From assembly GCA_021795215.1 (NCBI GenBank), contig JAJYPS010000004.1, forward strand, positions 1-49,973: a stretch of DNA of 49,973 bases. The letters run 5' to 3'. Below, one piece after another: positions 24,792-48,968 of this stretch (within the stretch, counting starts at the first letter, position 1; each line of letters starts with the position of its first letter). Below the pieces are notes generated by a model. That model did no database searches. It worked only from the letters and a program-made list of their open reading frames with translations, and was not told where the DNA came from. This stretch comes from Actinomycetes bacterium. Lineage in GTDB: Bacteria > Actinomycetota > Acidimicrobiia > Acidimicrobiales > JAKAOS01. The position numbers were made by a program, and so were the translations under genes.

Positions 24792-24968
24792 CGCCCCCCC
24801 GCTTCGGTGCCAGCTACACGCCTACCACGGGCCGGTCTTACCCCCTCCTCCGAACTTGATACCTGATACCTGGTTCCTCCGGACTTGATACCTGGCTCGT
24901 GCGAGCATTCCACCACACCGCTCCGAGGGCGCACCAACGCAACGAATCCACCGAGGTAGGGTCGAACG

Positions 24969-26474
24969 GTGCCGGTCGACCCTACGGTAAAGACGTCCTT
25001 CGGAATGCTGTCCGGCACCGAGACGCCTTCTGAAGTGCTCAAGTTCCTGGGCGTTCCTTACGCGACGCCTCCCGTCGGGAGCCTGCGATTCAGGTCGCCC
25101 CAGCCGGTATCGCCCTGGACAGGAGTTCGACCGGCGGCACGCTTCTCACCGATGGCGATCCAACCCATAACTCCGATGGAGCATGCGCTCGGGGTCGCCG
25201 CTCATCCCATGTCGGAGGACTGCCTGTACCTGAACATATGGACTCCTTCGGTCGACGGCCGCCTGCCGGTCATGGTGTGGCTCCACGGCGGAGCGTTCAC
25301 CAACGGTTCCGGCTCGGTCCCGTGGTACGACGGCGAGAACCTCGCTCGGCAGCACCAGGTCGTAGTGGTCACCCTGAACTACCGGTTGGGAGTGTTCGGC
25401 TTCCTCGATCTCGCCGGTTACGACCCCGAGACTTTCGAGGGTTCGGCCAACGCGGGGGTCTTGGACCAAAAGGCCGCTCTGGAGTGGGTCAGGGACAACA
25501 TCGGCAGCTTCGGCGGCGATCCGGCAAGGGTTTGCGTGTTCGGCCAATCGGCCGGCGCGATAAGCATCGCAGCGCTGATCTCCATTCCCGCCGCGGCCGA
25601 CCTCTTCGGCAGGGCGATCCTGCAGTCGGGCATCACGGCAGGAGTGGTCGACCGCGACCAGTCAGTCTCCCGGACGCGGTCGATCCTCGACCGTCTGGGC
25701 GTGGAGCGTGTCGACCGACAGAAGGACCGAGAGAAGCTTGCGTCCATTCCCGCAGCAGAGCTCCTGGCGGCGCAGGAGTCGACCGCCCTCGCCCACCCGC
25801 TCGCAATGCCTTTCGGGCCGGCCGTCGACGGGTCGCTTTTGCGCCGTCAGCCGATCGAAGCTATTCGGGGCGGTGCTGCACGTGACATAGAGCTCCTCGT
25901 GGGTGCCAACGAAAACGAGACGCGCCTCTTCCGCCTGCTGCTTCCTTCCCTTTTGCAGCTCCAGGACCGGAGGCAGCTGGTGGCCAAGGCGAGCCTTCTC
26001 TTCGGGGCATCCCTGGCGGAGGAGATGGCGTCGGCCTGCGCAGAACTACTGCCCGGCGCGTCGCCCTCCGAGCAGTGGGAGACGATGCTCGACGCGGGCC
26101 AGTTCCACGCCAACGTCTCCCTGGTCGCTCAAGCCCAAACCGGTGCAGGAGGTCGCTGCTACACCTATCTTTTCGCCTGGCGATCACGAGCGCTCGGCGG
26201 CAGCCTGGGTGCCTGTCACGGTCTGGAGCTGCCCTTCGTGTTCGACAATCTCGACAGTACCGGAGCCGAAATGCTCACCGGCAGTGGCGAGGACCGCCGC
26301 GACGTCGCTTCCATGATGGCGGCCGCCTGGACGGCGTTCGCTCGCTCCGGCAGGCCGCAAGCAGACGGTCTACCTACGTGGACTCCGTACGAGCGAGGGA
26401 GACCTTCTACGATGGTGTTCGATTCGAATCCCCGAATGGCCGATCTGCCGATTCCGCCGTGGGATCGCCGGTGA
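24969..26474 (+). CDS. Type B carboxylesterase/lipase
   Basis: SEDCLYLNIW, WLHGGAF, FGQSAG, ACHGLELPFVF. Confidence 0.93.
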   Translation: MPVDPTVKTSFGMLSGTETPSEVLKFLGVPYATPPVGSLRFRSPQPVSPWTGVRPAARFSPMAIQPITPMEHALGVAAHPMSEDCLYLNIWTPSVDGRLPVMVWLHGGAFTNGSGSVPWYDGENLARQHQVVVVTLNYRLGVFGFLDLAGYDPETFEGSANAGVLDQKAALEWVRDNIGSFGGDPARVCVFGQSAGAISIAALISIPAAADLFGRAILQSGITAGVVDRDQSVSRTRSILDRLGVERVDRQKDREKLASIPAAELLAAQESTALAHPLAMPFGPAVDGSLLRRQPIEAIRGGAARDIELLVGANENETRLFRLLLPSLLQLQDRRQLVAKASLLFGASLAEEMASACAELLPGASPSEQWETMLDAGQFHANVSLVAQAQTGAGGRCYTYLFAWRSRALGGSLGACHGLELPFVFDNLDSTGAEMLTGSGEDRRDVASMMAAAWTAFARSGRPQADGLPTWTPYERGRPSTMVFDSNPRMADLPIPPWDRR

Positions 26475-26548
26475 AGCAGCGGTAAAGCCAGCCCAGTATC
26501 CCCTCAAGCTTCGGAGCTTGTCTTCCGATAGATACGTGAGGAGGAACT

Positions 26549-27019
26549 TTGACTGCATTGAGTCCTTTTTATCCTTTGCCCGAAGCAGGTGGAGCGCCCG
26601 ACCGGGTGGACCCTGTGGCGGTGCGAGTCCTGATCGTCGACGACGACCCCAAGATCCGGCGGATAATCAGTATCTGCCTTTCCCTCGAATCGGGTTTCGA
26701 AGTGGTAGGAGAAGCGTCGGGCGGGGCGGAAGCGGTGAAGCTGGCCGCCACGTCGCGACCGGACGTAGTCCTGCTGGACCTGGAGATGCCGGGCATGAAC
26801 GGGCTCGCTGCAATGCCGGCGATACGCCGGGAGGTGCCCGACGCGAAGATAGCCGTCCTGTCCGCCTTTCCGGATCCCTTCACGTTGGGCGATGCCCTCT
26901 CCCGAGGCGCCGACACCTACCTGGACAAGGCGATGGGCCTGGCCGAGCTGCCGGCTGTCCTGAGGAGCCTGGTGGAGCCGGACGGCCAGGACGACGACCC
27001 CTCGTCCCTCACGCCGTAG
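26549..27019 (+). CDS. Stand-alone response regulator receiver protein
   Basis: VLIVDDD, PDVVLLDLEMPGMNG, YLDK; no output domain; GAGGAGG before the TTG (alternative start 26606). Confidence 0.85.
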   Translation: MTALSPFYPLPEAGGAPDRVDPVAVRVLIVDDDPKIRRIISICLSLESGFEVVGEASGGAEAVKLAATSRPDVVLLDLEMPGMNGLAAMPAIRREVPDAKIAVLSAFPDPFTLGDALSRGADTYLDKAMGLAELPAVLRSLVEPDGQDDDPSSLTP

Positions 27020-28649
27020 CGCATTGCCCCGGCGCCGAGCCGCCGACCCGAGCCCGAAGGCCCGGGTCGGCGAAGTACGGCCGAAGGCGCAGCTCGACCG
27101 GCGGCAGGTGCCCGTACACCAGCAGAGCGTGGCCTGGGCGTATGCGGCGGATCATATCCGGCGGTGCGAGGCGACGAGAGACCGGGGACACGGTCGTGGA
27201 GAAGCCGCCCCTGGCGTCCCGAGACCGTGAGGACGACATCACGTCCGCCTCCCCTGCCAACATGCTGACCTGGTCCAGGGTCACCTGGTCAGATACCCCG
27301 GACAGGATCAGCTTCGCCCTGTGGTTGTTGAACACGGTGGCGGCCCTGACTCCGTAGCGCGCGGCCACCTGCGCCAGGTCCTGGAACACCGTGAGCAGCT
27401 GAATGCCGTGTCCGGCGGCGGTGGCAGCGAGAGTGTCGAGATCGGCCAGGGGGGCGATGTTCGCAGCCTCGTCCAGAACGACCAGAAGGGGGCGAGCCAG
27501 CGGAGCGCCGCTTCGGGTGGCGGCCGAGTACGCCCGTCGCAGCACCTCTTCGATGAGCGAACTGAACAACGGCCTCAGGCGCGACTGGTCGTGCGCCGGG
27601 GCGCACAGGTAGAGCGTGTCGGAGCCACCAGCCAGAAGCTGTCCTATGTCGACCGACCGCGAAGCAGGCGCCGGGGGGCGGTCCGCGAAGGACTCGAGCA
27701 CCGTCTCGGCCGTGGTGTAGACAGAACTTCGTTGGCGCTCCTCCCTGCCCCACGACGCCTGCGCCGCCTGAAGCGCTTCGTCCGACCCCGCGGCTCGCAG
27801 GAGCTCGTACGCCTCGCCCATCTCCTGGGTGTCCACCCAGCGAGCGACGTCCTCCATCCCGAGCCCGCCGCGAGCGGCGGCCAGGAGCAGAGGCGCCAGC
27901 AGCTTCGCAGCCAAGGAGTACCAGAAGTCGGCCTCGTCGAGGCGTCCCTCGCCCACGCGAGCAGACTGGCACATCGTGGCAGCGATCCTGCGCGCGGCCG
28001 GCCAGGAGTGCGCTCCGCCCAGCGGGCACCAATCCGCCGTCTCGTAGCCGGTGCTGCCGGTCGGGTCGAAGACCGACACCGTCCCCAAGGTGGCTCTCCA
28101 GCCGAACGTGCTTCGGAGCAGGTCCGATTTCACGCTCGCAGCCAGCACAGGACCGTCCCATTCGAGAATGGTCGGTATGGCGAGCCCGGACGTCTTCATC
28201 GTCTGGCTCGGTCCGACCACCACCAACGACTGGTTCGGCTCGCACGCCAGGAGCTCCCTTCCCACTTTCCCGAGCACCAGCCGACCCCGCTCCGCCGCCG
28301 CCACTCGCAGGGGTGCCACATCCGCGGCGGTTGCCCAACGAGCCTGCATACCGCCGCTCCCGGCCCGCCCCTTGGACAACCCCGCAGCGGCTCGACCGGC
28401 GGCGGACCAGTGGCCGGACGGTCGGTCGGAGGAACCGAACCCCGCTGGCGACGAGAGCAGGCGATACAGCACCGGGACGGCGACCACCGCCGCGAGCACA
28501 AGGACCGGGGCGGCGCCAGAGCCGACCAGACGAGACCACTGGCATGCGCCGGCGATCACCGCAAGCGCCGACGAACCCAACAGGCCGGCGACGGAAAGGT
28601 AGCGCTGTCTCCGCCACGCCGTGTCGCCGTGCCGCCCAGGAGCGCTCAC
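27009..28649 (-). CDS. Type IV coupling protein (VirD4/TraD-TraG family)
   Basis: N-terminal TM pair; variant Walker A GPSQTMKT; SVKSDL; LDEAANIAP; QDLAQ..ARYG; NNHRAK; GTGA overlap with upstream gene. Confidence 0.88.
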   Translation of the reverse strand: MSAPGRHGDTAWRRQRYLSVAGLLGSSALAVIAGACQWSRLVGSGAAPVLVLAAVVAVPVLYRLLSSPAGFGSSDRPSGHWSAAGRAAAGLSKGRAGSGGMQARWATAADVAPLRVAAAERGRLVLGKVGRELLACEPNQSLVVVGPSQTMKTSGLAIPTILEWDGPVLAASVKSDLLRSTFGWRATLGTVSVFDPTGSTGYETADWCPLGGAHSWPAARRIAATMCQSARVGEGRLDEADFWYSLAAKLLAPLLLAAARGGLGMEDVARWVDTQEMGEAYELLRAAGSDEALQAAQASWGREERQRSSVYTTAETVLESFADRPPAPASRSVDIGQLLAGGSDTLYLCAPAHDQSRLRPLFSSLIEEVLRRAYSAATRSGAPLARPLLVVLDEAANIAPLADLDTLAATAAGHGIQLLTVFQDLAQVAARYGVRAATVFNNHRAKLILSGVSDQVTLDQVSMLAGEADVMSSSRSRDARGGFSTTVSPVSRRLAPPDMIRRIRPGHALLVYGHLPPVELRLRPYFADPGLRARVGGSAPGQCATA

Positions 28650-29977
28650 CTCGCTTCCGGGCGGGAGGAGGCTCCGGCGGTAACGGGCCGTAGGGGCCAG
28701 AACCCAGTACCCCGAGGATGTGCGGCGACACCTCCCGTCTCCGTCGCTCTTGGCACTTGGCCCATCGCCGCGTCGGTGTCCACCAGGGCTCGCTCCTCTC
28801 CCCCGAGCCGGTGGCGGACCAAGAAGGAGCGCCCGCCGACCTTCCAAAGCGCCAGGCCGCGGCCAAGTCGGGGGAGCAGGCTCTCCTCCGAAGACCCCAG
28901 GTCCAGCAGCGATGCCGCTCGTCTGGCCTCCGACGCTGGTTGGGCGAAGATCACCTTCGTCTCGGAGTCGAGCAGGAGGCCTTCCGCCAGACCCGCCACC
29001 TGGCTGCCACGAGGACCCACGGCGGCCAGATCGGTCGCCCGATGGACCACCACGACATTCGACACACCCCAGGCCCGGCTCAACTTCCAACTGGCCTGCA
29101 GCCACCGGGCGGTGGTGAGCTCGGACAGGAGCGCCCATGCTTCGTCGACCACCACGTAGCGCTTCACGCCGTCACCGGTCATGAGCCTCGCCCCCATCCA
29201 GGCGAGAGCGCACGTCATCAGCACACCCAGCCCCTTGGACCCGTAGAGGGGAGACAGGTCCAGCACCACCAAGGGAGCATCAAGATCGAGGCCCGGCGTG
29301 GTGGGGCCGTCGAACAGGCCTGCCAGATCGCCGTTCACGAGACGCCGCAACTCGAGCGCCACATCTCGCCCGTCCTCCGCCAGTGCGCGGACGTCGGTCG
29401 AGAGCGCCGACGCCGAAAACTGGGTCGGGCGCATGAGCTGGTCCACCACCGCCGGCACCGTTGTGGGCGGCTGTTCGCGGGCTGCCATCGTCACGGCCGC
29501 CACCACTGCAGCCCTCTCTCGTGGCGTGACGCTACGGCGCATGGTCACCTCCGCCAGTGAGCAGAGCAGGTCCGCCCCGCCACCAGGCCCCGCTCCGGAG
29601 CCTCCGGCGGCGTCCAGAGGGTTCAACCTCACCTGCCCTCCGGGTGCTATCCGGATCGGTCGTACACCCCACGCAGCTGCGAGGGCTCCGTACTCACCCT
29701 TCGGGTCGAGCACCCATCCCTGGCGACCCAACACGGCCTGCCGCCAGAGAAGGCTCTTGACCATCGCGGACTTTCCCCTCCCTATCTGTCCGACCACGGC
29801 CATGTTCGGGCTCGTCACGACACCTGCTGCGTACAGCTGGAACGGATCGAACCAGAAGGGGGCGCCGAACAGGTCCTGGCCCATGTAGCTGCCTGTCCTG
29901 CCGTAGCCCGGCTCCCCCCAGAAGGGGTGGGCCGCTGCCAGCTGTGCCGTCGTTGCCACGTGGCGAGGCAACTTCAC
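28646..29977 (-). CDS. VirB4-like ATPase
   Basis: DPFQLY...TSPN...GQIGRGKS, DPKGEY, VVVDEAW, KLSRAWGV; GTGA overlap. Confidence 0.88.
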   Translation of the reverse strand: MKLPRHVATTAQLAAAHPFWGEPGYGRTGSYMGQDLFGAPFWFDPFQLYAAGVVTSPNMAVVGQIGRGKSAMVKSLLWRQAVLGRQGWVLDPKGEYGALAAAWGVRPIRIAPGGQVRLNPLDAAGGSGAGPGGGADLLCSLAEVTMRRSVTPRERAAVVAAVTMAAREQPPTTVPAVVDQLMRPTQFSASALSTDVRALAEDGRDVALELRRLVNGDLAGLFDGPTTPGLDLDAPLVVLDLSPLYGSKGLGVLMTCALAWMGARLMTGDGVKRYVVVDEAWALLSELTTARWLQASWKLSRAWGVSNVVVVHRATDLAAVGPRGSQVAGLAEGLLLDSETKVIFAQPASEARRAASLLDLGSSEESLLPRLGRGLALWKVGGRSFLVRHRLGGEERALVDTDAAMGQVPRATETGGVAAHPRGTGFWPLRPVTAGASSRPEAR

Positions 29978-31467
29978 GACAGGCCCCTGCCCAAGGGAAG
30001 CAGGCACGCCAAGCCGCTGTCTATTTGACCGTAAAGCCTCCTCAAGTCCAGCCCGGCCTGCGCCGCCACGCGTTCGACGCCGTCGCACGCTACCTCGAGC
30101 TCGTCCCGAGCAGCGGCGGCGACGCCCACGTATCCGGAGAACCTGAACTGCGCGTGGCCATCTGCCAGCTCGGCGGCCAGCCTGGCCGTTTGAGCGGCCT
30201 CCCTCTGCCGCCTGGCCGACACCACGAACCCGTGCCTCCTCCGCAACTCCGCCTCGGCTAGCTCCGCGGTCCGCGCCTGCTCCACGTCCCGGGCGGCTCG
30301 CAGGGCTGGCGTCGGTTCCAGGGTGGTCGACATCGTGATCCTGGCTCCTCGCTGGAACAGCAGTGGCGTGAGGAAATCGGGTCCCACTTCGGACCGCGGC
30401 CATTCGGCTACCCAGTAGGTAGCGTGCCAAGTGCCGCCGGTGCGGAGTGACGACCAGCGCCGCTCGATCGCCGTGGGCCAAGGCCAGCCAGGAGAATCGG
30501 CTCCTCGCCTGCCGCCCGGCCCGAACGGCGCCCGTGCCCGCAGTTCGGGCTCGGACGAGAACGCCTGCAGGACCGTCTCCGACAGCGCATCCGGGCCGAG
30601 TGGCCAAGCAGGTGCCAGGCCTGCCCGTTCCAGCTCCATGCACAGCGCAGAGATCCGATCGGCAAGCAGGTCGCAGGCGGCCAGATCGACACCTCCCCCC
30701 CCACGGACGGGCCGCCCAGCCCTGCGCTCCGACACGGTCAGGGCGACCAGGGTCTGCTGTGCCCAACTTCGATCCTCCCACTCCTCGAGGAGCGCTCTGT
30801 AGCTCTGCCCCCTGCGAGTCGGCTCCTCGGGAAGCGTCAAGGTGTCCGGCCCCGTGGTCAGAGCCGACGGCATCCGCCGTGCTATCCACTGAACGCGCCG
30901 GACGTCGTCGCTCTCTGCAGCCAGCGAAGCCAGCAGCCGGCCCCAGCCCGCGGACCGCCTCGCTCGCCCGGCACGCTCACCCAACATCGCTCCTGGTGCC
31001 TCCACCATCACCACAGCCGTGTATCGACGGTAACGCCCGTCGTGCACCACACCCAGCCTGGGCCTCCCCGGTGCAGGAGGGGCGGCGAACAGGTGCAGCC
31101 CCTCGAAACCGCTCCGCTGCTCCGTCCTGTGCCCGGTCCTGCCCTTCGCCCTCCCGTGGCCACCGACTGCCGTTCCGGCATAGGGACGGCGGCTCACCAC
31201 AACCGGTGCCCTCCTCTGCGCCAACCAGGCAAGGACCGCCGGTGACCACTGCAGAAGCGACCTTCCGCCCAGCGGCCACCTGGCAAACGCCACCGCGGCA
31301 GAGGCGACAGCGCAGCCGACGACCACTCCAACGGCGTCGGGAAGCATACGGAGGACCTCGACGGCAACAGCCAGGCCGACGGCCACGACAACCAGCTGCG
31401 ACGATTGCCAGCCACCCATCAGCCCTCGTTGGGACCTCGGGCCGAACTCGTAACGGCTCTCACTCAC
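29974..31467 (-). CDS. SCO6880/PrgI-family T4SS membrane protein
   Basis: YEFGPRSQRGLMGG plus two TMs; WHATYWVAEWPR; ELADGHA; LPLGRGL. Confidence 0.8.
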   Translation of the reverse strand: MSESRYEFGPRSQRGLMGGWQSSQLVVVAVGLAVAVEVLRMLPDAVGVVVGCAVASAAVAFARWPLGGRSLLQWSPAVLAWLAQRRAPVVVSRRPYAGTAVGGHGRAKGRTGHRTEQRSGFEGLHLFAAPPAPGRPRLGVVHDGRYRRYTAVVMVEAPGAMLGERAGRARRSAGWGRLLASLAAESDDVRRVQWIARRMPSALTTGPDTLTLPEEPTRRGQSYRALLEEWEDRSWAQQTLVALTVSERRAGRPVRGGGGVDLAACDLLADRISALCMELERAGLAPAWPLGPDALSETVLQAFSSEPELRARAPFGPGGRRGADSPGWPWPTAIERRWSSLRTGGTWHATYWVAEWPRSEVGPDFLTPLLFQRGARITMSTTLEPTPALRAARDVEQARTAELAEAELRRRHGFVVSARRQREAAQTARLAAELADGHAQFRFSGYVGVAAAARDELEVACDGVERVAAQAGLDLRRLYGQIDSGLACLLPLGRGLS

Positions 31468-32956
31468 CGGAGTCGGCCCACCAGTCCCCGTTCCCCCACG
31501 GGTCATCTCCAGCCTCCGTCTCGGACGTGTCGTGACTCCCGACCGATCGCTCGGGGCCACGGCGATCCACGTCCGCGCCCTCGACCTCCCGAGCGGCTGC
31601 GTCGAAGTCCGCCCGGTCGTTCGCCGTCCGCCCGGACGAGCCGGGGACGCCAGCGGGATCGTCCACCAGAGCCGCAGACCCGAGCGGCGGTTCCCCCCCG
31701 GCCAGCCGCCCATCGGGCAGGCCCCCTTCGGGCAGGCGACCGGTTCCCTCGCCGGCACCCTGCGACGAGCTCCCCTCCGACGTCCCTCCGTCGGCGGCTC
31801 CGTCCGGGACGGACCGTGCCGGCCTGACCGGTGGGATCCGACGCACCTCTCCGTTGGAGTACTCGATGCCTTCCCTTGCCAGCAGAGCTTCGAACTCGGC
31901 GGGCACGCCCGTCGGCTCGGCGAGCGGCGGAAACGACGGCTCGTTGCTCGGGTCGAGCACCCCGTCCTCCCCCCCGGTCATCTGCGCGAGGCGAGAGCCC
32001 AGGGATGCCGCTGCGGGAACGGCGCGGAGCGCCCTCCGGCCGGTCCCCTCCAGATGGCCGACCGCTCCGGACTCGATGAACGGAACCATCCTCAGCAGTG
32101 CGAACGGCGAGAACGTGGCCATCAGCAGGAGCGCCGCACCGCTGAGCAGGCTGGCCACGTCCAGATGGCGGCCGCCGGACACCATCGCCGAGGCGCCGAG
32201 GGCCAGCACGGCGACCATCACCAGCTTGGAAAAGATCAGCGCCATCAGGGTCTCGGCCAGCCGTCTCGCCCAAGCAGTGGTCACCGGCCAGATCATGCCG
32301 GCCAGCGCCAGAGGCATGAACATCGTCGCCGCCAGGATGGCCGCCGATCGCAGGATCAGCTCCAGCCACAACCCGAGCGACGCCGCTCCGAGGAGGGCGG
32401 CCAGTACGAGCGTCACCAATGGTGGCGCCGAAGGGCCGGTGCCCCCTACGCCTCCGGCCAGCTGCGTCATCAGCGCTGCGGGATCGAAGCCCGAGGAGCG
32501 GGCCAGATCCCGGCTCAACACGTTCGTGACGGCCACCGCTACCTGAACCAGGCCGAGAGAAGCCGCTCCGAGGACCGCCGCCAAGGGAAGCTGCAGCACG
32601 ACCGCTCGCACGATCGCCCCCGTGTCCTGGCGAACCACGCCTTGCATCACCGCTCCGAGCAGAAGGGGGAGGGCGACGAATCCTGCGACGTCCTCCATCA
32701 GCCGTGCGTGGCCCGCGAACCAGGGCGCTCCCAACGGTGGCTCGGACGACGTCGACAGGACGTGTCCCACTTGGTCGAGCAGCCACGCTGCTGCCGCGTC
32801 GAAGGACTTGCCAATCGCGCCGAGCAGCGCCACAGCCGCAGCGCCGAGCAGGGACGACCCGGGACCGGCGCACGACACGGCGCCCGTACCGCACGACGGC
32901 ACCGCCTGGTGCAGGAGCGCCTGATGCACGCCCGGCTGCGTTACGTGAAGGCTCAA
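31460..32956 (-). CDS. VirB6/TrbL-like polytopic T4SS membrane protein
   Basis: Multiple TMs, LWLELILRSAAI...PLALAG.IWP, low-complexity acidic tail; start uncertain. Confidence 0.75.
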   Translation of the reverse strand: MSLHVTQPGVHQALLHQAVPSCGTGAVSCAGPGSSLLGAAAVALLGAIGKSFDAAAAWLLDQVGHVLSTSSEPPLGAPWFAGHARLMEDVAGFVALPLLLGAVMQGVVRQDTGAIVRAVVLQLPLAAVLGAASLGLVQVAVAVTNVLSRDLARSSGFDPAALMTQLAGGVGGTGPSAPPLVTLVLAALLGAASLGLWLELILRSAAILAATMFMPLALAGMIWPVTTAWARRLAETLMALIFSKLVMVAVLALGASAMVSGGRHLDVASLLSGAALLLMATFSPFALLRMVPFIESGAVGHLEGTGRRALRAVPAAASLGSRLAQMTGGEDGVLDPSNEPSFPPLAEPTGVPAEFEALLAREGIEYSNGEVRRIPPVRPARSVPDGAADGGTSEGSSSQGAGEGTGRLPEGGLPDGRLAGGEPPLGSAALVDDPAGVPGSSGRTANDRADFDAAAREVEGADVDRRGPERSVGSHDTSETEAGDDPWGNGDWWADSGE

Positions 32957-33249
32957 TGGACCTTGGTCCCGGCGTGGTAGAAGAAGCGCACGACCGCCGG
33001 AGCGGCACCGATGGCCAACGCCGCCACGCTCGACACCAGCACGGCCCGCCTGCCTGCGAAGGCGTGCTGGTAGTTCTGCGAATGGGCTCCGAGCGCCCAC
33101 GTGGCGGCGCCGATCAGGAGGCCCGCCAGCGCGGCCATCAGCGCCCACGCCGACAGACCGTCCACCAGGCTGGTCAGCACGGGGCCGCCAGGCAGGGCGC
33201 CCAGGTTCGGAGACAGGGCGGGCAGAGCAACGGCGAGCGATGACATCAC
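32953..33249 (-). CDS. VirB2/TrbC pilin-like small membrane protein (DUF6112-like)
   Basis: PNLGALPGG plus two hydrophobic helices, ending IGAAPAVVRFF; GGAGG RBS. Confidence 0.75.
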   Translation of the reverse strand: MMSSLAVALPALSPNLGALPGGPVLTSLVDGLSAWALMAALAGLLIGAATWALGAHSQNYQHAFAGRRAVLVSSVAALAIGAAPAVVRFFYHAGTKVH

Positions 33250-33354
33250 GGCACCTCCGGGGACGACAATCTGACGCCGCCGATCCTATAGAGCGGCCCA
33301 TGGCATTTCAATGCGTTTCACTGACTACGGTGTCGACATGGCGAAGGGTGGGCA

Positions 33355-33954
33355 GTGGAACAGACCCGGACGGTGATCGCACTGGCCGGGTTGGCGTTGG
33401 TCGGAGGGGCTCCCCTGGCAGCCGGTGCCGCAACCGTGACGATCGGCATGTCGCTCGTCGCGGTCGGGTCGATCGCAGGCGTGGGGAGCGGCATCGGCAC
33501 GGCCACGTCGTCCGCTGCTGCCTACGGTCCGCCTCCGGTCACTCCGATCAGCGCGGCTCCGGGCTACGCGAGGCCGATACCTCCTCGGATGCTCGCGCTC
33601 TACCGTTGGGCCGCCCCCAGCTGTCCCGGCCTGCCGTGGCAGGTACTGGCCGGTATCGGTCGCGTCGAAACCGATCACAACCTGGCCGACGGAATCTCCA
33701 CCGCCGGTGCGGAAGGGCCGATGCAGTTCATGCCGGCAACGTTCGCCGCCTACGGAGCAGACTCCGGCGACGGCGACGCTGCCAATATCTGGGACCCCGC
33801 CGATTCGGTGCTGACCGCGGCCCGGTACCTCTGCGTCAACGGAGCCGGTAGCCCGGCCGGCATAAGGGGGGCTCTGTGGGCCTACAACCACTCCTCCGCC
33901 TACGGCTCGGAGGTCCTGCTCTACGCAGCGCGCTACACGAGACTTTACGGCTGA
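33355..33954 (+). CDS. Lytic transglycosylase (SLT, VirB1-like)
   Basis: WQVLAGIGRVET, AGAEGPMQFMPATF, ALWAYNHS; N-terminal hydrophobic segment. Confidence 0.88.
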   Translation: MEQTRTVIALAGLALVGGAPLAAGAATVTIGMSLVAVGSIAGVGSGIGTATSSAAAYGPPPVTPISAAPGYARPIPPRMLALYRWAAPSCPGLPWQVLAGIGRVETDHNLADGISTAGAEGPMQFMPATFAAYGADSGDGDAANIWDPADSVLTAARYLCVNGAGSPAGIRGALWAYNHSSAYGSEVLLYAARYTRLYG

Positions 33955-34045
33955 CGCCACCTGCGATCTCGCATGAGCCGCCGGAGCCGGCGAAACGGCC
34001 CTAGTGTGGCGGTGTGGGACTTCCGGCGGGGGCCGCCCCGGGTCC

Positions 34046-35335
34046 ATGCACATCCTGACCCCTCATCCGCTCAGTCCATTCGCCGTAGTGGTGCTCGCCG
34101 CGGTGACCGTGACAGCAGCGTTGCTCGGCGCTGCTGTCGGCAGCGCCCGGAGCCGGTACCGCACCCGACGGCGGCTGACGTCCGTGGTCTCCCGCCTGGG
34201 AGCCGTCTCGGACGACGCACCGGTGGAGGGACGGGGTGAAGCGGTCGAGAGCGACATCCGGCTGGAAGGACTTCTCTCCAAGCTGGAGAGGATGACCGGC
34301 AACGCCGTGGAGGCGGTCAACGTGGCGAAGGCAGAGGCGAGCCGGCTACGACACGCGATCGACGTGCTGCCCCACGGAATCGTGATCCGGGACGAGCACG
34401 GAGACGTGATCTTCCGCAATGCCAGCGCCGGATCGCTGATCGGGAGCAGGCACTCGGACCTGCTGGCGGCCAGGACGATCGACGAGCAGCTCGAGTCGAC
34501 CGGCCCTGTCGAGCCGAGCGAGCGGACTATCGAACTGTACGGTCCGCCGCGGCGGACGCTGGTGATAAGGGCCAGTCCGCTGGACGACGGCAATCAGTCG
34601 CTCGGCGTGGTCGCCGTGATGGAGGACGTTTCGGAGCGACGGCGGCTGGAGGCCGTGCGCAAGGACTTCGTCGCCAACGTCAGCCACGAGCTGAAGACTC
34701 CCGTTGCCGCCCTCGCCCTGCTGGCCGAGACGCTCGCCGACGAGAAGGACCCCATGGTCACCCAACGTCTGGCCGGCAGGATCCAGACCGAAGCCGTGCG
34801 GGTCGGCCGGATCATCGAGGACCTGCTCGACCTGTCGCGAATCGAGGCGGAGGAGGCGCCTCCGCGTGAGCCCGTGTCAGCGGGCCTCATCGTGGCGGAG
34901 GCAGCCGACAGGGTCCGCTCCGCGGCCGAGCGCCGCCAGATCCGCATCGAGGTCGCCGAGCCGGCAGACGACTGCCTGGTGCTGGGCGACAGGCGCCAGT
35001 TCGTGTCGGCCGTGCACAACCTCATCGACAATGCCGTCAAGTACTCCCCCGACGGTTCGGCCGTGCACGTGGAGACCGGGACGGAGTCCGGCTGGGTCGA
35101 CATAGTGGTCAAGGACCACGGAATCGGGATCCCTGCAAGAGACCTGAGCCGGATATTCGAGCGGTTCTACCGAGTCGACCAGGCCCGGAGCCGCTCCAGT
35201 GGCGGCACTGGGCTCGGCTTGGCCATAGTTAGGCATGTGGCCGGCAACCATGGAGGGCGTGTGATGGTCAATTCCAGGGAAGGCGAGGGTTCGGTGTTCA
35301 CCCTCCGTCTGCCCACTGCGGGACAGGGACGATGA
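34046..35335 (+). CDS. senX3: Sensor histidine kinase, SenX3-like
   Basis: DFVANVSHELKTP, NLIDNAVKYS, RIFERFYRVD, GGTGLGLAIVRH; precedes a regX3-like regulator. Confidence 0.85.
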   Translation: MHILTPHPLSPFAVVVLAAVTVTAALLGAAVGSARSRYRTRRRLTSVVSRLGAVSDDAPVEGRGEAVESDIRLEGLLSKLERMTGNAVEAVNVAKAEASRLRHAIDVLPHGIVIRDEHGDVIFRNASAGSLIGSRHSDLLAARTIDEQLESTGPVEPSERTIELYGPPRRTLVIRASPLDDGNQSLGVVAVMEDVSERRRLEAVRKDFVANVSHELKTPVAALALLAETLADEKDPMVTQRLAGRIQTEAVRVGRIIEDLLDLSRIEAEEAPPREPVSAGLIVAEAADRVRSAAERRQIRIEVAEPADDCLVLGDRRQFVSAVHNLIDNAVKYSPDGSAVHVETGTESGWVDIVVKDHGIGIPARDLSRIFERFYRVDQARSRSSGGTGLGLAIVRHVAGNHGGRVMVNSREGEGSVFTLRLPTAGQGR

Positions 35336-35374
35336 GCAGGTTTCGACGATGAGCGGGTTTCGACGATGAGCAGG
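35328..35374 (+). repeat. 17-bp tandem repeat (about 2.8 units) encoding two ATGA-coupled hexapeptide ORFs
   Basis: GACGATGAGCRGGTTTC at 35328, 35345 and 35362 (partial); ORFs 35332-35352 MSRFRR and 35349-35369 MSGFRR. Confidence 0.9.
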
Positions 35375-36079
35375 GAGCAGCCCACGGTGCTCCTGGCCGA
35401 GGACGAGGACTCCTTCGTCGAGGCTCTCGTGGTGGGCCTCAAGCGGGAGGGGTTCCGAGTGGAGGTCGCCCGGGACGGTGTGACTGCCCTGGCGCAGTTC
35501 GACTCGGTCCGGCCGGACGTGGTCCTGCTGGATGTGATGCTGCCCCAGATGTCGGGGCTGGACGTCTGCCGAGAGATAAGGACTCGGTCGTCGGTCCCGA
35601 TCATCATGGTGACAGCCAGGGGAACCGAGTTGGACACAGTGGTCGGCCTGGAGGTGGGAGCGGACGACTACGTGTCCAAGCCGTACCGTCTCCGGGAGCT
35701 GATCGCCCGTATGCGAGCTGTCATGCGGCGATCGCCCGAAGGGGGCCAGGCGAGCGGCGTCACCAGCGACGTAGTGGAGGTGGGAGGCGTCCGGCTGGAC
35801 CCCGAGCGCCACGAGGTGACGGTTCGCGGCGACGAGGTGCGGCTGCCGCTCAAGGAGTTCGAGCTGCTGGAGCTGCTGTTGTCCAACGCGGGTCGTGTCC
35901 TGACCCGTGAGACGCTGATCGACAGGGTCTGGGGACCGCACTACGTGGGGGACACCAAGACTCTGGACGTCCACGTGAAACGTCTACGGGCCAGGATCGA
36001 AGAGGACCCGTCGCGACCTTGCCTGATCACGACCATCCGGGGGCTCGGCTACCGCTTCGAAGTGCCACGGGCCTCCTGA
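35366..36079 (+). CDS. regX3: OmpR-family response regulator, RegX3-like
   Basis: LPLKEFELL, LIDRVWG..YVGDTKTLDVHVKRLR. Confidence 0.88.
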   Translation: MSREQPTVLLAEDEDSFVEALVVGLKREGFRVEVARDGVTALAQFDSVRPDVVLLDVMLPQMSGLDVCREIRTRSSVPIIMVTARGTELDTVVGLEVGADDYVSKPYRLRELIARMRAVMRRSPEGGQASGVTSDVVEVGGVRLDPERHEVTVRGDEVRLPLKEFELLELLLSNAGRVLTRETLIDRVWGPHYVGDTKTLDVHVKRLRARIEEDPSRPCLITTIRGLGYRFEVPRAS

Positions 36080-36673: not shown

Positions 36674-37528
36674 TCAAGGCAGCCTCGCCGCCCGAGCCCA
36701 CCACCGTCCACCGGAGCAGTCCACATCGAGACCGACATCGAAGCAGGACGACAGCACGTCGGGGACCATCACCTGTGCAAGGGTGCCGGCAGCATCGATC
36801 CGTCCCTCTTTCAGGCACAGCCCATGAGTGAAGCCGGGTGGTATCTCTTCGGGGTGGTGCGTGACCAGCACGACGGGGAGATGCGGTTGCTCCGTCCCGA
36901 GCTGCCGTAGGCGCGCCACCATCGATTCCCTGTTGGCCAAGTCGAGCGAGGCGGCGGGTTCGTCCAAGAGCAGCAGGTCAGGCGACTGCAGCAGGACACG
37001 GGCCAGAAGTGCCTGCTGACGCTCACCGTCCGAGAGGCTCTCCCACACCTGTTCCATCCGAGAGCCCAAACCTCCCCGGCGCAACAGCTCCGCCGCCGCC
37101 TCACGCTGGCGATCGTCGTGGCGGCCCCACCAAGGCGCCAGCGACGAGTCGCCGCCGGTAAGGACCACCTCCAGGGCGGTCAGGCCGGGCGCCAGGCGAT
37201 GGCCGAGCGACGGTCCGGCCACTCCTATCCGACGTCTCAGCAAGCGAAGGTCGACGGCCCCCACGGTGGCACCGAAAAGTCTCGCCGTGCCGGATGTCGG
37301 CCGCTCGACGGCGCCCAACAGTCGCAGGAGGGTCGTCTTGCCCGCCCCGTTGGGCCCCAGCACCACCCAGCGCTGCCCCGCTTCGACCTGCCAGTCGACG
37401 GGGCCCAGGATGCGCCGCCCGGAGCGGACGATCTGGACCTGCCGCAGCTCCACCACCCCGGCACCGTCGCCCGAAGCGACGGTCGAGGTAGCCGGATCAT
37501 CCCCCGGTCCGTTGCTCAAGGTGCTCAA
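36674..37528 (-). CDS. ABC transporter ATP-binding protein (ModF-like)
   Basis: GPNGAGKT, LSDGE, LLLLDEP, VTHHPEEIP; start uncertain (TTGA overlap with serS). Confidence 0.85.
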   Translation of the reverse strand: MSTLSNGPGDDPATSTVASGDGAGVVELRQVQIVRSGRRILGPVDWQVEAGQRWVVLGPNGAGKTTLLRLLGAVERPTSGTARLFGATVGAVDLRLLRRRIGVAGPSLGHRLAPGLTALEVVLTGGDSSLAPWWGRHDDRQREAAAELLRRGGLGSRMEQVWESLSDGERQQALLARVLLQSPDLLLLDEPAASLDLANRESMVARLRQLGTEQPHLPVVLVTHHPEEIPPGFTHGLCLKEGRIDAAGTLAQVMVPDVLSSCFDVGLDVDCSGGRWWARAARLP

Positions 37529-38814
37529 GGTGCCGGGATGGCCTCCTGGCCCCCCATGTAGCCTCTCAGGCAGTCGGGCACCTTCACCGAACCGTCCGCG
37601 TTCCGGTTCACCTCGACGAGAGCCGCCCAGATACGGGGCCACGCAAGAGCAGAGCCGTTCAACGTATGGACGAACGCCGGGGGGCCACCTCGGGAGGGGC
37701 GGTAACGGATGTTCGCACGCCGGGCTTGGTAGTCGGAGAACCACGACACCGAAGAGACCTCGAGCCACCTGTCGGTGCCCGGTGCGTAGGCCTCCAGGTC
37801 GAACGTGCGAGCCGACGAACTGCCCAGGTCGCCCGTGCAGAGATCGACGACCCTGTACTCCAGACCGAGCGCTGCCAGAAGACCTTCGGCCCTGGCCAGC
37901 AGCTCTGCATGGACGTCGCCCGCCTGGGATGGCGTCGCGTAGGCCAGCACCTCGACCTTGTCGAACTCGTGGACCCGCAGGAGTCCCCGCGTGTCCCGCC
38001 CGGCCGCGCCGGCTTCCCTCCTGAAGCAGCTGGTCGCAGCGGTCAGCCGCATCGGCAACTGGCCCTCGTCCAGCACCTCTTCACGGCCCAGCGACGTCAG
38101 GGGTACTTCGGCCGTCGGGATCGCCCAGAGATCGTCCCTCTCGACGTGGTACGCCTCCTCGGAGAACTTCGGGAGGTGGCCGGTCGACACCATCGTGGCC
38201 GTCTTGACCATCGTCGGAGGACGGATCTCTTCGAAACCCCCGCGAAGGTGGTCGTCGAGCGCGAAGTTGGTCAGCGCCCGCAGCAGCCGGGCCCCTGCCC
38301 CTCTGTACAGAGGGAACATCGACCCCGACAGCTTCGCTCCGCTCTCCAGGTCCAAGATGCCGAGATCCCGCCCCACATCCCAGTGGGGGACTCGCTGCCA
38401 CGGCGCGTAGGAGCAGTTCTCCGGCCGCCACGTGCGGACCACGGGATTGTCGTCGGGGCCTGCCCCGTCGGGCGCCTCGGACGAAGGAAGATTGGGAAGA
38501 CGTAGGAGCGCTTCTCTCCGGGCCTCTGCCGCCGCCTCGGCCTCCTTCTCCAGCAGGCCCGCTTCCACTCCCTTTTCTCGGCTCTGCACCCGCAGCTGCT
38601 CGGAGAGCTCACCCTCTCCGCTCCGCTGAGCCGCGGCAACTTCCCGGGAGAGCGCCTTGACCGCCGCGCGTGCTTCGTCCCGCCGACGGACCAGGTCGGA
38701 AGCGGCAGCGTCCAAGGCCGCCAGCCGGCGCACCTCACCCGGATCGACGCCACGGCGGCGCAGCGCCGAGAGAACCGAGTCGAAGTCTGTGCGGACGAGG
38801 CGAATGTCGATCAT
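37525..38814 (-). CDS. serS: Serine--tRNA ligase
   Basis: MIDIRLVR, IPTAEVP, FRREAGAAGRDTRGLLRVHEFDKVE, DYQARR, HTLNGSALA. Confidence 0.97.
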   Translation of the reverse strand: MIDIRLVRTDFDSVLSALRRRGVDPGEVRRLAALDAAASDLVRRRDEARAAVKALSREVAAAQRSGEGELSEQLRVQSREKGVEAGLLEKEAEAAAEARREALLRLPNLPSSEAPDGAGPDDNPVVRTWRPENCSYAPWQRVPHWDVGRDLGILDLESGAKLSGSMFPLYRGAGARLLRALTNFALDDHLRGGFEEIRPPTMVKTATMVSTGHLPKFSEEAYHVERDDLWAIPTAEVPLTSLGREEVLDEGQLPMRLTAATSCFRREAGAAGRDTRGLLRVHEFDKVEVLAYATPSQAGDVHAELLARAEGLLAALGLEYRVVDLCTGDLGSSSARTFDLEAYAPGTDRWLEVSSVSWFSDYQARRANIRYRPSRGGPPAFVHTLNGSALAWPRIWAALVEVNRNADGSVKVPDCLRGYMGGQEAIPAP

Positions 38815-38841
38815 CTGTCGACAAACGGTAGCGTCAAAGCG

Positions 38842-39864
38842 GTGGCTGTGATCGAAGTCCAGGATCTGGTGGTTCGGTACGGCGCGCGAACCGCCGTCGC
38901 AGGAGTGTCCTTCGAGGCCCATGCTTCTCGAGTGCTGGGGCTGCTGGGGCCGAACGGAGCGGGAAAGACGACCACGGTCGAGACGCTGGAGGGCTACCGC
39001 CAGCCGGCGGCCGGTCGAGTCGCCGTGCTCGGAATGGACCCGGTCGCCGACAGGCGGGCGCTGGCACCCAGGATCGGAGTCATGCTGCAGCAGGGTGGCG
39101 TCTACGCCAGGATGAGTCCCCGCCAGGCGCTCCGGCTGTTTGCCGGCTACTACCGGGAACCGGAAGATCCCGAGTCGTTGCTGGAGCGGCTGGCGCTGGT
39201 GGACGCCGCGCGGACGCCGTGGCGGCACCTCTCCGGGGGAGAGCGGCAGCGCCTTTCGCTGGCCCTTGCGCTCGTCGGGAAGCCGACGGTGGCGTTCCTG
39301 GACGAACCCACGGCCGGAGTCGATCCTGCGGGCCGGCTCGCGATCCGCCAGGTAGTTAGGGACCTGGCGGACGGCGGGGCTTGTGTGGTGCTGACCACAC
39401 ACGAACTGGACGAAGCCCAGCACCTGGCCGACAACCTGGTGATCGTCGACCAGGGCCGGGTGATAGCGCAGGGCAGCCCGAGCGAGCTGATGGCCGGCGT
39501 AGGAGGCGGGTCGATCCGTTTCGGCGCCCCGCCCCACCTCGACGTGGCCTCTCTGTCGGCCACCCTGGGCGCGGCAGTGGTCGAGGACTCACCAGGGGAG
39601 TACACAGTTTCGACCTCCCCCACTCCGCAGGCGGTGGCGACGCTCACTTCCTGGCTGGCCCAGCGGAGCCTTCCTCTGGCCGACCTGAGGGCCGGACGGG
39701 GAACTCTGGAGGACGTCTTTCTCCAGCTGACCGGGACACCTGGAACCGGCCAGGCAGGCGGTGCAGCGGTGCAGGGCGGACGCAGCAGAGGCCGGCGCAG
39801 TGCCGGACACCGGTCGGAGAGGTCCGAGGGAGCCGGTCGCAGAAGGACGGGGAGCAGGCGTTGA
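38842..39864 (+). CDS. ABC-2 type exporter ATP-binding protein
   Basis: GPNGAGKT, LSGGERQRL, FLDEPTAG. Confidence 0.92.
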   Translation: MAVIEVQDLVVRYGARTAVAGVSFEAHASRVLGLLGPNGAGKTTTVETLEGYRQPAAGRVAVLGMDPVADRRALAPRIGVMLQQGGVYARMSPRQALRLFAGYYREPEDPESLLERLALVDAARTPWRHLSGGERQRLSLALALVGKPTVAFLDEPTAGVDPAGRLAIRQVVRDLADGGACVVLTTHELDEAQHLADNLVIVDQGRVIAQGSPSELMAGVGGGSIRFGAPPHLDVASLSATLGAAVVEDSPGEYTVSTSPTPQAVATLTSWLAQRSLPLADLRAGRGTLEDVFLQLTGTPGTGQAGGAAVQGGRSRGRRSAGHRSERSEGAGRRRTGSRR

Positions 39865-47166: not shown

Positions 47167-47521
47167 CTAAAAGCGACGCAGTGCGCCGGCCTCGAGGCCG
47201 GTGGTGAAGCGCCGCTCGGCGCGTAGCCCCGAATCAAACTGGCCGATCCTGTTGTTCGATGTACTGACGCAGGACCTCACTCGGGGCTCTGCCAACCGTC
47301 CAGCGAAGTACGAGCCAGTCCACAGTCCTTTGGCCCGCCAGTAGTGCCTGGCAGTCTCGGGGAACTCATGGCGCATCCGCCTGGACGAAACGCCCTCGAG
47401 ACTGTTGACAAGCTTCGACAGGGCGACCTTGGGCGGGAAGTGCACCAACAGGTGGACATGGTTGGCCTCTCCGTTGGACTCGACCAACTGGCACTCGAAG
47501 TCCGCACACCGACCGGAACTC
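47167..47521 (-). mobile_element. tnpA: IS200/IS605 tnpA remnant with terminal hairpin
   Basis: NHVHLLV HUH motif, LSKLVNSLEGVSSR, LWTGSYFAG; frameshifted; hairpin CGCCGGCCT-CG-AGGCCGGTG at 47184-47203. Confidence 0.85.
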
Positions 47522-47570: not shown

Positions 47571-48137
47571 GTGGAGGCCAGCCGGGACGAGCTTGCGCGA
47601 TTCTTCGAGGTGGTCCTTCCGCACCTGAACGAGATGCAGCGCCGAGTCGTAGCTGGAGCGATTGCGTGGGGTCTTGGCCGTGGCGGGAAGACCGCGGTGG
47701 CCGAGGCTTCGGGGATGAGCCGCAATACGGTGATCAAGGCCGAACGCGAGGTGATCGCCGGGATCGAGCCGTCTCCTCGCCAACGTGCGGTCGGTGGTGG
47801 GGACATCAAGGCAGAGATCAAGCAGCCCGGCCTCTTGGAAGCGCTCGACGCGCTGGTGAACCCCGAGACCCGTGGCAACCCGATGTCGCTGTTGCGCTGG
47901 ACGTCGAAGTCGACTGCGAAGCTGGCTGCAGATCTCGTCCGCCAGGGCTTCGCCATCACCGACGACACAGTGGGGCGGATCTTGAAGTCCCTCGGCTACA
48001 GCCTCCAGGCACCGGCAAAGGAGAAGGAAGGCACATCCCATCCCGACCGCGATGCCCAGTTCCACTACCTGAACGACCAGGCCACGTCCTTTGTCGAGGC
48101 TGGTCAGCCGGTGAGCCCCTTTTCCCAGCTCGCATGA
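47571..48137 (+). pseudogene. ISAzo13-family transposase, truncated
   Basis: LPHLNEMQRR, TRGNPMSLLRWTSKST, LGYSLQ, HPDRDAQF; ends before the DDE core. Confidence 0.88.
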
Positions 48138-48269: not shown

Positions 48270-48689
48270 TCACGCCCAGGGGTTGAGGATGTCGAGGCCG
48301 GTGAATCTCTCGAAGTCCTTGGTGTTGCGGGTGACGACGGCCATGTGGTGCTCGAAGGCCGTCGCTCCGATCAGGGCGTCGCGAAACGGTGCTGGGTCGG
48401 GCACGTGCAGCCGGGCGGCCCGGCGGGCGACCCTCTCGTCGACGGGCAGCACCCGCTCGGCGAAGGCGGCGGCGACGCTGGTGTCGAGCCAGATGCGCAG
48501 CAGGGCTCCCTTGTGCGGGTCGGAGCGTTCGGCTAGTAGGACCCCGTGCTCCAGCTCGTGGAGGGTGATCGCGGAGATGAACAGTTGCGCAGCGGGTGTC
48601 GAGGTCGCCCACGCCGCAACGCCGGGGTCGGCCTTGCCAGCCCGCGCCTTGCGGAGCTCTGACACCACGTTGGTGTCGAGGAGGTACAT
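48270..48689 (-). CDS. vapC: VapC PIN-domain toxin
   Basis: YLLDTNVVSELRK, ELEHG, DALIGATA, VTRNTKDF, NPW. Confidence 0.95.
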   Translation of the reverse strand: MYLLDTNVVSELRKARAGKADPGVAAWATSTPAAQLFISAITLHELEHGVLLAERSDPHKGALLRIWLDTSVAAAFAERVLPVDERVARRAARLHVPDPAPFRDALIGATAFEHHMAVVTRNTKDFERFTGLDILNPWA

Positions 48690-48940
48690 CAGGCGAAGCC
48701 GGCCGCCTCGGGCAGCTCCCGGGAGGGCTCGATCACCAACTCGACGTCCTCGACACCTGCCGGCTCCCCGAGCCGGTCCAGCAGGTCGACGCCCAGAAGT
48801 TTCTGGTAGTCCACGAAGCTGAGCAGCACATGAGCGGGCTTGCCGCGGTCGGTGATGAAAACCGGCCCGTCTACGGCGGCCTTCTTGGCCCGGCTGGTGT
48901 CTTGGTTGAACTCCCTGCTCGAAATGTGCGACGCCACCAT
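48689..48940 (-). CDS. Phd/YefM family antitoxin
   Basis: SSREFNQDTSRAKKAA.DGPVFITDRGKPAHVL; GGAGG RBS. Confidence 0.92.
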   Translation of the reverse strand: MVASHISSREFNQDTSRAKKAAVDGPVFITDRGKPAHVLLSFVDYQKLLGVDLLDRLGEPAGVEDVELVIEPSRELPEAAGFA

Positions 48941-48948
48941 CACCTCCA

Positions 48949-48968
48949 ATGTAGCCACGTAACTACAT
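48949..48968. promoter_or_regulatory. Palindromic operator of the phd-vapC operon
   Basis: ATGTAG-CC-ACGT-AA-CTACAT immediately upstream of the antitoxin RBS. Confidence 0.7.

Follow-up and report, generated by a model that had tools for sequence, protein, structure and literature searches.

We analysed a stretch of 49,973 bases, the window of this text, which is one whole contig (C105) of an Acidimicrobiales metagenome-assembled genome (MAG), and found in it a five-gene operon for parts of a type IV secretion system (T4SS), here called the module, that is conserved beside a two-component regulatory pair in related genomes. Its position, trees and selection support the view, put forward earlier in a preliminary description of this DNA, that the module is fixed in the chromosome and domesticated in a group of uncultured Acidimicrobiales rather than part of an integrative and conjugative element (ICE). 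We consider it likely, with a probability of about 60%, that the module is the captured mating-pore half of a TrwC/MOBF-type element, inherited vertically, and that it serves the host-controlled export or transfer of relaxase-piloted single-stranded DNA. Conjugation genes are usually seen as a property of mobile elements; here they behave like a core trait of their hosts, an actinobacterial lineage that is widespread and for the most part uncultured. The genome to which the window belongs comprises 2.61 Mb in 152 contigs at a GC content of 0.680, and since it is 92.7% complete, absences at the genome level are provisional.

Composition of the module

Gene models, drawn from a GC3 frame plot together with a listing of in-frame start codons, place the operon on the minus strand at 27009-33246, with five genes in the order E-D-C-B-A that overlap start to stop by 4, 8, 4 and 4 nt at the E/D, D/C, C/B and B/A junctions (Table 1). 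These models and the family matches given below bear out what the preliminary description had read there, namely a coupled operon of pilin-like, VirB6-like, SCO6880-like, VirB4-like and VirD4-like genes with a divergent transglycosylase, in intact reading frames and of host-like high GC (0.69-0.72 in the module, where the contig as a whole has 0.671 and the genome 0.680). Its stated place between a receiver-only regulator and a senX3-regX3-type pair was likewise confirmed by Pfam and NCBIfam domains.

Gene A encodes a protein with the matches of a VirD4-type coupling protein in Pfam: PF02534 (2e-35, 122.9 bits against a cut-off of 20.1), TraG-D_C (1.7e-23, 83.3 bits against 22) and also TrwB_AAD_bind. 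Hydropathy places two hydrophobic segments at its N-terminus, and its Walker motifs read GPSQTMKTS (A) and VVLDEAAN (B). Within the family of A the second glycine of Walker A is variable, with methionine also found in ICE-borne copies, and the Lys-Thr and DE residues are conserved. Gene B, which has no hydrophobic segment, matched VirB4 models over their C-terminal ATPase part only (CD1110 positions 413-728, 1.6e-15; TraC positions 420-690), and it carries both motifs of a VirB4-family ATPase, GQIGRGKS (Walker A) and VVDEAW (Walker B), neither of which varied across the 11 sequences aligned. Gene C scored 206.7 bits against NF042935 SCO6880_fam (cut-off 60), its residues 6-493 corresponding to model positions 3-476 of 477, and its residues 337-494 matched positions 200-363 of CD1110 VirB4 (4.4e-4). 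When its AlphaFold model (predicted local distance difference test, pLDDT, 82) was compared with the PDB by Foldseek, the 11 top-ranked matches listed (ranks 1-12) were TrwK/VirB4 of R388, the best being 8rtb_B (E 6e-9, TMq 0.50), and a match to EccE was weaker (7.6e-4). Given the VirB4-like fold predicted for C and the C-terminal VirB4 part represented by B, the two together resemble one VirB4 divided between two genes, an arrangement also present in the ICE-borne relatives described below.

Gene D had no Pfam match and scored weakly against SCO6881_fam (E 4.4e-9, 35.9 bits against a cut-off of 325); its several overlapping hydrophobic stretches are consistent with about six membrane helices, and from about residue 335 onward its model (pLDDT 74) is mostly a low-confidence Pro/Gly/acidic tail. 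The best PDB matches to this model, to TrwI/VirB6 (7o3v_F/G), were weak (E 4e-3 to 5e-3), and the D ortholog in locus L039 matched Pfam TrbL at 1.9e-5 (25.0 bits, cut-off 25.9), which makes the assignment of D as VirB6/TrbL-like weak but consistent. Gene E, whose ATG is preceded by a GGAGG ribosome-binding site at 8 nt, matched DUF6112 (PF19607; 1.6e-6, 28.3 bits, cut-off 25), and its orthologs in loci L026 and L039 weakly matched TrbC/VIRB2 pilin (3.5e-6 and 1.6e-4, respectively). The divergent gene F, immediately upstream of the kinase gene, has Pfam matches to SLT_2 (1.4e-8) and SLT (2.5e-7) and so qualifies as a VirB1-like peptidoglycan hydrolase. Because no more than 6 of 59 loci, a tally that includes the window and a duplicate locus, have an F-like gene in the gap from SenX3 to E, F is no constant part of the module; this wall hydrolase is kept in basal lineages such as the window's.

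Conservation, phylogeny and selection

Of 600 candidate stretches from a collection of species-representative genomes, 580 held relatives of B by a profile search, and the best 80 of those relatives all came from Acidimicrobiales/Acidimicrobiaceae MAGs, at 55-61% identity. In tblastn searches with the window's proteins, B matched in all 80 of these loci, A in 78, C in 69 and D and E in 59 each, with matches to the SenX3-like kinase in 51, to the RegX3-like regulator in 45 and to SerS in 37. We keep the names SenX3 and RegX3 from the preliminary description; neither protein reached the cut-off of an NCBIfam equivalog, the best scores being 296 bits for PnpS (400 required) and 244 for MtrA (300 required). 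The order of genes was constant (SerS .. RegX3, SenX3 / E D C B A), and the module adjoined the SenX3/RegX3-like pair in 51 of the 80 Acidimicrobiales loci and in 7 of 12 relatives' loci, so that the conserved synteny proposed earlier as a check on domestication was found. Loci outside the SenX3-linked set were mostly short contigs or split operons, and where a contig ended before its flanks could be seen, as in L029, L030 and many others of the 80, this was not scored as absence. The splits belong to a large subclade (L050, L041, L031 and others) in which 4-10 kb separate C from B, occupied by ordinary metabolic or housekeeping genes for a NUDIX protein, DUF1275, a flavin monooxygenase, a UbiE-type methyltransferase and a cyclase; the operon is intact there on either side of the break, and the hydrolase gene is absent from the gap between SenX3 and E.

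An order-level sample of 41 genomes, one per family for nearly all, had B at 50% identity or more in 11 genomes besides our own. Ten genomes, our own included, carried the module directly at the SenX3 site, among them G023 and the complete 2.2-Mb G038, with two divergent copies in genomes of 2.0-2.2 Mb. Patchy presence with empty sites had been named in advance as a sign against domestication, and this was seen in part, with 20 of 21 SenX3 loci examined having no adjoining module gene; the genomes concerned, however, fell outside the module clade in a tree of SenX3 and RegX3. In that tree of 27 genomes, nine of the ten at-site genomes grouped in a single clade (support 98) to which no genome without the module belonged, a pattern better matched by one gain than by patchy mobility. 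Phylum-wide, a B homolog was present in 69 of 401 genomes (65 of 397 when four unpublished genomes are left out). We had intended SerS as a species marker and dropped it: the SerS of relatives is of two types (identities of 52-65% and of 33-45%), both of which can occur in a single family, and this points to the replacement of SerS by a foreign copy. Nor was an 'empty site' informative when SerS was used to define it, since SenX3/RegX3 are not next to SerS in most module-less genomes, and for this reason SenX3 itself was located instead.

The trees of the module genes pointed the same way. A FastTree phylogeny of concatenated A+B (111 rows) placed all 59 senX3-linked rows together with 22 short or split loci, which are from Acidimicrobiales, in a clade of 81 (support 98) that contains no mobile copies, and IQ-TREE under a site-heterogeneous model (55 rows) joined the 31 senX3 rows in one clade (SH-aLRT 93), with the ICE-borne loci L142 and L156 outside the senX3-linked clade. 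Across 44 loci the protein distances of A+B and of SenX3+RegX3 correlated at r=0.86, which 0 of 2000 permutations reached, although both this test and the proxy for the host tree use module-linked genes. Median dN/dS (nonsynonymous to synonymous substitution rates) over 14 close pairs was 0.065 for E, 0.081 for D, 0.119 for C, 0.085 for B and 0.132 for A, against 0.030 for SenX3, 0.070 for RegX3 and 0.116 for SerS, and within a pair the dS of module genes equalled that of the flanks. The congruent trees and purifying selection anticipated for a domesticated system were thus both observed, and relaxed selection, as expected of a decaying ICE, is contradicted by these ratios.

Two further kinds of relative help to place the module. 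The ICE-borne relatives carry the expected mobility genes, L142 an integrase, an excisionase-like helix-turn-helix protein, a TraI-type helicase and SSB, and L156 an integrase, a Toprim protein and a 1,093-residue TrwC relaxase with a helicase domain; B homologs also occur on 58 actinobacterial plasmid records, at no more than 42% identity. In a sister clade (loci L039 and L026; G016) a TrwC gene lies divergent from E in the position of SenX3, and the cluster, in which no integrase was seen, sits among housekeeping genes, between an LPG-synthase-like membrane protein and MurT/GatD. Here the same machinery seems to have been fixed in a chromosome a second time. L026 has in addition a 731-residue F5/8 type C and Ig-like protein inserted between C and B.

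Mobility genes and partners in the genome

Pfam searches of all 46 gene models of the contig found neither relaxase nor integrase. The earlier claim that no relaxase is present therefore held for the window and failed for the genome, which has one TrwC-type relaxase gene, on contig C139 among housekeeping genes; searches of the genome for the relaxase families PF03432, PF03389, PF01076 and PF02486 gave no match, and one for PF13814 was uninformative, its controls being silent. Four matches to tyrosine recombinase (PF00589) lie on contigs C32, C48, C54 and C127, and none on C105, C16 or C139, the last two being the contigs of the partner genes described next. The only tRNAs on the window are at 4932, 45705 and 49151, at least 11 kb from the module, and no att-like repeats flank the module beyond short imperfect direct repeats at chance level. 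The earlier statements that integrase, att repeat, adjacent tRNA and a VirB8/TcpC-like gene are missing from the contig therefore stood, and att sites nearby, which would have spoken for an ICE, were not found around the module.

T4SS-type ICEs of actinobacteria are described as using a TrwC-type relaxase (Bordeleau et al. 2012, PMC3429521). The orphan TrwC of our genome scored 233 bits against the TrwC domain (cut-off 25), keeps the HxxxRxxDPxLHTH motif, and has Tyr13, H151, H162 and H164, which are invariant in 8 aligned sequences. Its neighbours are RNase HII, a GGDEF protein, TypA and a carboxyltransferase, with a PafC/WYL regulator adjacent. PafC stood beside TrwC in 7 of the 11 module genomes examined (our own counted) and at none of 13 TrwC loci from 11 module-less genomes, and TrwC-like genes were present in 10 of the 11 genomes with a B homolog of at least 50% identity. 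The second partner, the VirD4 paralog A2, is 36% identical to A and lies in the context Ddl - bPH - methyltransferase - A2 - CtaG, shared by G038, with peptide deformylase near it in our genome. Of the 13 genomes of the order that have the module, 12 also have an ortholog of A2 (42-55% identity); the 28 others have none, the matches there being at most 37% identical and part of other elements. In G020 and G023 the genes for A2, TrwC and PafC are contiguous.

Candidate control region

The promoter-like element ahead of the operon was the sole sigma-70-like match in 26400-34100, where 0.2 would be expected, and it overlaps two TGAAA(C/T) direct repeats with 10-nt spacing at 33305-33321, an AT-rich block that is unusual amid DNA of about 68% GC. 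Of 29 intergenic regions, 15 had an AT-rich TGAAA-repeat block overlapping the -35 box upstream of E, where shuffled sequences gave 0.3, a count that is descriptive only, as the pattern was relaxed after the alignment had been viewed. The repeats are a candidate binding site for the OmpR-type regulator, and the divergent arrangement with a phosphate-type sensor pair together with the TGAAA block suggests that the operon may be co-regulated with that pair. The receiver-only regulator at the other end has no output domain in Pfam, and homologs of it lie downstream of A in L021, L054, L064 and L080. Separately, three tandem 17-nt units (GACGATGAGCAGGTTTC and variants) at 35328-35378 span the kinase stop and the regulator start.

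Proposed mechanism and alternative explanations

The gene set corresponds to the core, membrane and energising parts alike, of a monoderm T4SS of the actinobacterial SCO6880 type. In the mechanism we propose, an ancestor common to one clade of Acidimicrobiales families would have captured this set beside the SenX3/RegX3-like pair, and the set would have descended vertically ever since, like other clusters of host genes. E (VirB2-like), D (VirB6-like) and the membrane hairpin of C would form a membrane channel energised by a two-chain VirB4 ATPase of C plus B, with A as VirD4 substrate receptor and with F opening the peptidoglycan. The module would cooperate with A2 (C16) and the TrwC-like relaxase beside the PafC/WYL regulator (C139) to export single-stranded chromosomal DNA, piloted by the relaxase, or to pass it from cell to cell under the control of the host, and expression of the module may follow the neighbouring phosphate-type sensor. 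Because the module is conserved along with a pair of coupling proteins and a relaxase of plausible catalytic activity, we favour DNA export or transfer; the assembly of the proteins, DNA as the substrate, the direction of transfer and control by RegX3 are what we infer. More tentative, and rather doubtful, is a bolder version in which the mating-pore operon at senX3/regX3, the second coupling protein and the catalytically intact TrwC relaxase, under its WYL/PafC-type regulator, make up from two or three chromosomal loci a whole conjugation apparatus of vertical descent, with which the cells transfer their own chromosomal DNA among themselves, perhaps switched by the sensor through the TGAAA repeats. 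If that were true, bacteria would have in it an equivalent, derived from a T4SS, of archaeal Ced or mycobacterial distributive transfer, and if the module does move chromosomal DNA, environmental Actinomycetota would have a route of gene exchange that belongs to the host.

A number of observations weigh against vertically inherited DNA export as we propose it. The orphan TrwC has no detectable helicase domain, its C-terminal 653 residues being without a Pfam match at 1e-3 (the MOBF helicase is described as dispensable in some cases, PMC3429521), and TrwC-like genes are common without the module too (13 of 29 genomes). The Walker A of A lacks its second glycine, no adhesin was found, and no VirB8/TcpC-like domain was found by Pfam in the 46 window gene models, where the tail of D could hide a divergent form. 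F is without a counterpart at the site in 53 of the 59 loci. G038, the tenth at-site genome, forms a long branch outside the host clade, and the linked-gene tests, taken alone, do not exclude an en-bloc transfer of the whole region. A DNA sequencing run, X1, contains the window and may be its source, whereas two RNA runs of that study contained next to none of the window's sequence words. A last point of this kind comes from the Streptomyces coelicolor cmd operon, whose deletion is described as causing defects of sporulation, branching and chromosome segregation and overproduction of actinorhodin, with transfer of an SLP2-derivative plasmid unchanged (PMC2782261); a non-transfer role is therefore possible for the module.

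A domesticated machine that no longer moves DNA, and that has come to serve protein secretion, effector delivery to neighbouring cells or an envelope or developmental role as proposed for cmd, is a serious rival, to which we give a minor but real chance; the relaxase-like gene would then have some other role. Besides the cmd phenotypes it would account for a module locus without a relaxase and a TrwC without a recognisable helicase domain, and a T4SS cluster that lacks a relaxase is commonly interpreted as a protein exporter (PMC3158045). It accounts poorly for the retention across families of a VirD4, a second VirD4 and a relaxase with intact Tyr/His motifs, or for the relaxase that adjoins the module in the sister clade, and the neighbourhood of the module showed no genes resembling those for effectors or immunity proteins. 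Retained coupling proteins and relaxase bear equally on DNA import of a ComB-like or Ced-like kind, for nutrition under phosphate limitation or for recombination: T4SS-derived uptake systems are not known to have either component, and here both are kept and co-occur with the module. Import therefore seems improbable to us, even with the conserved divergent arrangement beside a PhoR/SenX3-type sensor pair and the precedent of Ced, a domesticated chromosomal machinery (PMC9905601), in its favour.

The possibility that the module belongs to an active ICE or integrated plasmid whose integrase, relaxase and ends lie outside the region examined draws on the close homologs of the gene set on ICEs with integrase and TrwC (L142, L156), the plasmid-borne homologs and the transposase fragments at the contig ends, which lie more than 13 kb from the module. 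We regard it as largely refuted and very improbable, since the same chromosomal neighbours recur across many families, the senX3-linked copies are of one origin with dS matching that of the flanks, and the three contigs carrying module and partners have no integrase, with neither att-like repeats nor an adjacent tRNA at the module. A decaying, functionless remnant of an old element, which the missing VirB8-like gene, the lack of the hydrolase in most relatives and the atypical Walker A of A might indicate, is likewise largely refuted and the hardest of all to credit: frames are intact, ATPase motifs are invariant, dN/dS of 0.065-0.13 resembles that of housekeeping neighbours, the module is kept in streamlined genomes of 2.0-2.2 Mb, and both operon halves are kept where the operon is split. 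For annotation, VirB4 and VirD4 without a nearby relaxase in Actinomycetota need not be an ICE fragment, and the SCO6880 family would be the N-terminal half of a split VirB4.

Features of the window

Table 1. Positions of module genes, flanking features and partner genes (window coordinates unless a contig is named)
Feature	Position	Strand	Description
Gene E	32953-33246	-	97 aa; DUF6112, small two-helix membrane protein, VirB2/TrbC-pilin-like
Gene D	31460-32956	-	498 aa; polytopic membrane protein, putatively VirB6/TrbL-like
Gene C	29974-31467	-	497 aa; SCO6880-family, N-terminal membrane hairpin then predicted VirB4-like fold
Gene B	28646-29977	-	443 aa; apparent C-terminal ATPase half of split VirB4
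Gene A	27009-28649	-	546 aa; VirD4-type coupling protein
Gene F	33355-33954	+	199 aa; membrane-anchored SLT-type lytic transglycosylase, divergent from operon
Promoter-like element	33283-33321	-	TTGAAA, 17-nt spacer, TAGGAT
Receiver-only response regulator	26549-27019	+	convergent with gene A; PF00072 1.4e-26
PhoR/SenX3-type histidine kinase	34004-35335	+	domain matches; conserved neighbour marking the chromosomal site
OmpR-type regulator (RegX3-like)	35366-36079	+	domain matches; conserved neighbour marking the chromosomal site
Orphan TrwC-like relaxase	C139:26613-29429 (locus L162:7246-10059)	-	938 aa
Second VirD4 paralog A2	C16:5200-6801 (locus L004)	+	orphan coupling protein

The contig's other genes, by Pfam, include ones for nitrite/nitrate reduction, asparagine synthase, MMPL, efflux, ClpS, SerS and similar functions. 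The 670-residue 'SerS' open frame at 37525-39864 is a high-GC artefact; the true SerS lies at about 37528-38814 on the minus strand, and the upstream part of the long frame overlaps a plus-strand ABC ATPase and then an ABC-2 permease. The transposase fragments near both contig ends represent four different families and are accompanied by a PIN/Phd toxin-antitoxin pair (positions 2-469, 1343-1729, 47170-47487, 47571-48134 and 48273-48949 for fragments and pair together). Two 20-nt direct repeats 29 nt apart at 24846-24894, between divergent MFS transporter and carboxylesterase genes, look like an operator.

Comparison with known systems

Ghinet and colleagues, in 2011, reportedly described T4SS-type ICEs and plasmids of Actinobacteria that combine an integrase with a TrwC/MOBF relaxase, VirD4 and VirB4. 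The actinobacterial ICEs among our own relatives (L142, L156) resemble the module in gene families, in the order E-D-C-B-A and in an adjacent wall hydrolase. They differ in that the module's locus has no integrase, att site, tRNA target or relaxase, that the module is fixed in position and vertically inherited, and that its relaxase and second coupling protein are at other chromosomal loci. For DNA release by the module a mechanistic model may be seen in the T4SS of the gonococcal genetic island, which is chromosomal, has a relaxase and coupling protein and exports chromosomal DNA; that system is F-like, and belongs to an acquired, variably present Gram-negative island.

Conjugation-derived machinery that is chromosomal and widely kept in a lineage is also described elsewhere. 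Archaeal Ced is a 'domesticated' chromosomal conjugation machinery that transfers cellular DNA, named a DNA-import apparatus in the title of its report (PMC9905601), and the T4SS of Patescibacteria is described as related to MPF-FATA, chromosomal and mostly without a relaxase (PMC12102498). The module shares these general traits, and it differs from both in phylum, in component set, in the presence of VirD4, in the relaxase-like gene of its genome and in its split VirB4. A literature search, which did not reach subscription journals and supplements, found no account of such a system in Acidimicrobiia.

Closest of all described systems is the cmdABCDEF operon of S. coelicolor (SCO4126-4131), described as chromosomal and co-transcribed and as encoding membrane proteins and a VirB4-like membrane-associated ATPase, CmdB; cmdB, cmdC and cmdD resemble SCO6878, SCO6880 and SCO6881 and transfer genes of plasmid SLP2 (PMC2782261). 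The gene numbered next after the operon, tgdA (SCO4132), encodes a lytic transglycosylase with the same mutant phenotype, which SCO5677 also shares (PMC6585502); all of these cmd phenotypes are known from Streptomyces mutants only (PMC2782261, PMC6585502). An attempt to link SCO5677 with the orphan VirD4 paralog failed, as VirD4-like matches in three presumed Streptomyces genomes were inconsistently offset from the cmd-like locus. That locus, L153, has six co-directional genes of 128, 282, 446, 519, 476 and 529 residues mid-chromosome in presumed Streptomyces genomes of 7-10 Mb, and from these gene sizes and this position it is probably cmd itself. Both it and the module are chromosomal operons of homologous families that include a VirB4-like ATPase, whereas the module has five genes, without a counterpart of the gene of about 282 residues between the small protein and D, identity is 35% for B and about 27% for A, and the cmd-like copies occupy a very long separate branch in the A+B tree. 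Given this branch and the sixth gene, we take the module and cmd to be parallel fixations of one T4SS family, not orthologs, and if our reading of the module is true it would provide a comparative handle on the still unexplained cmd operon.

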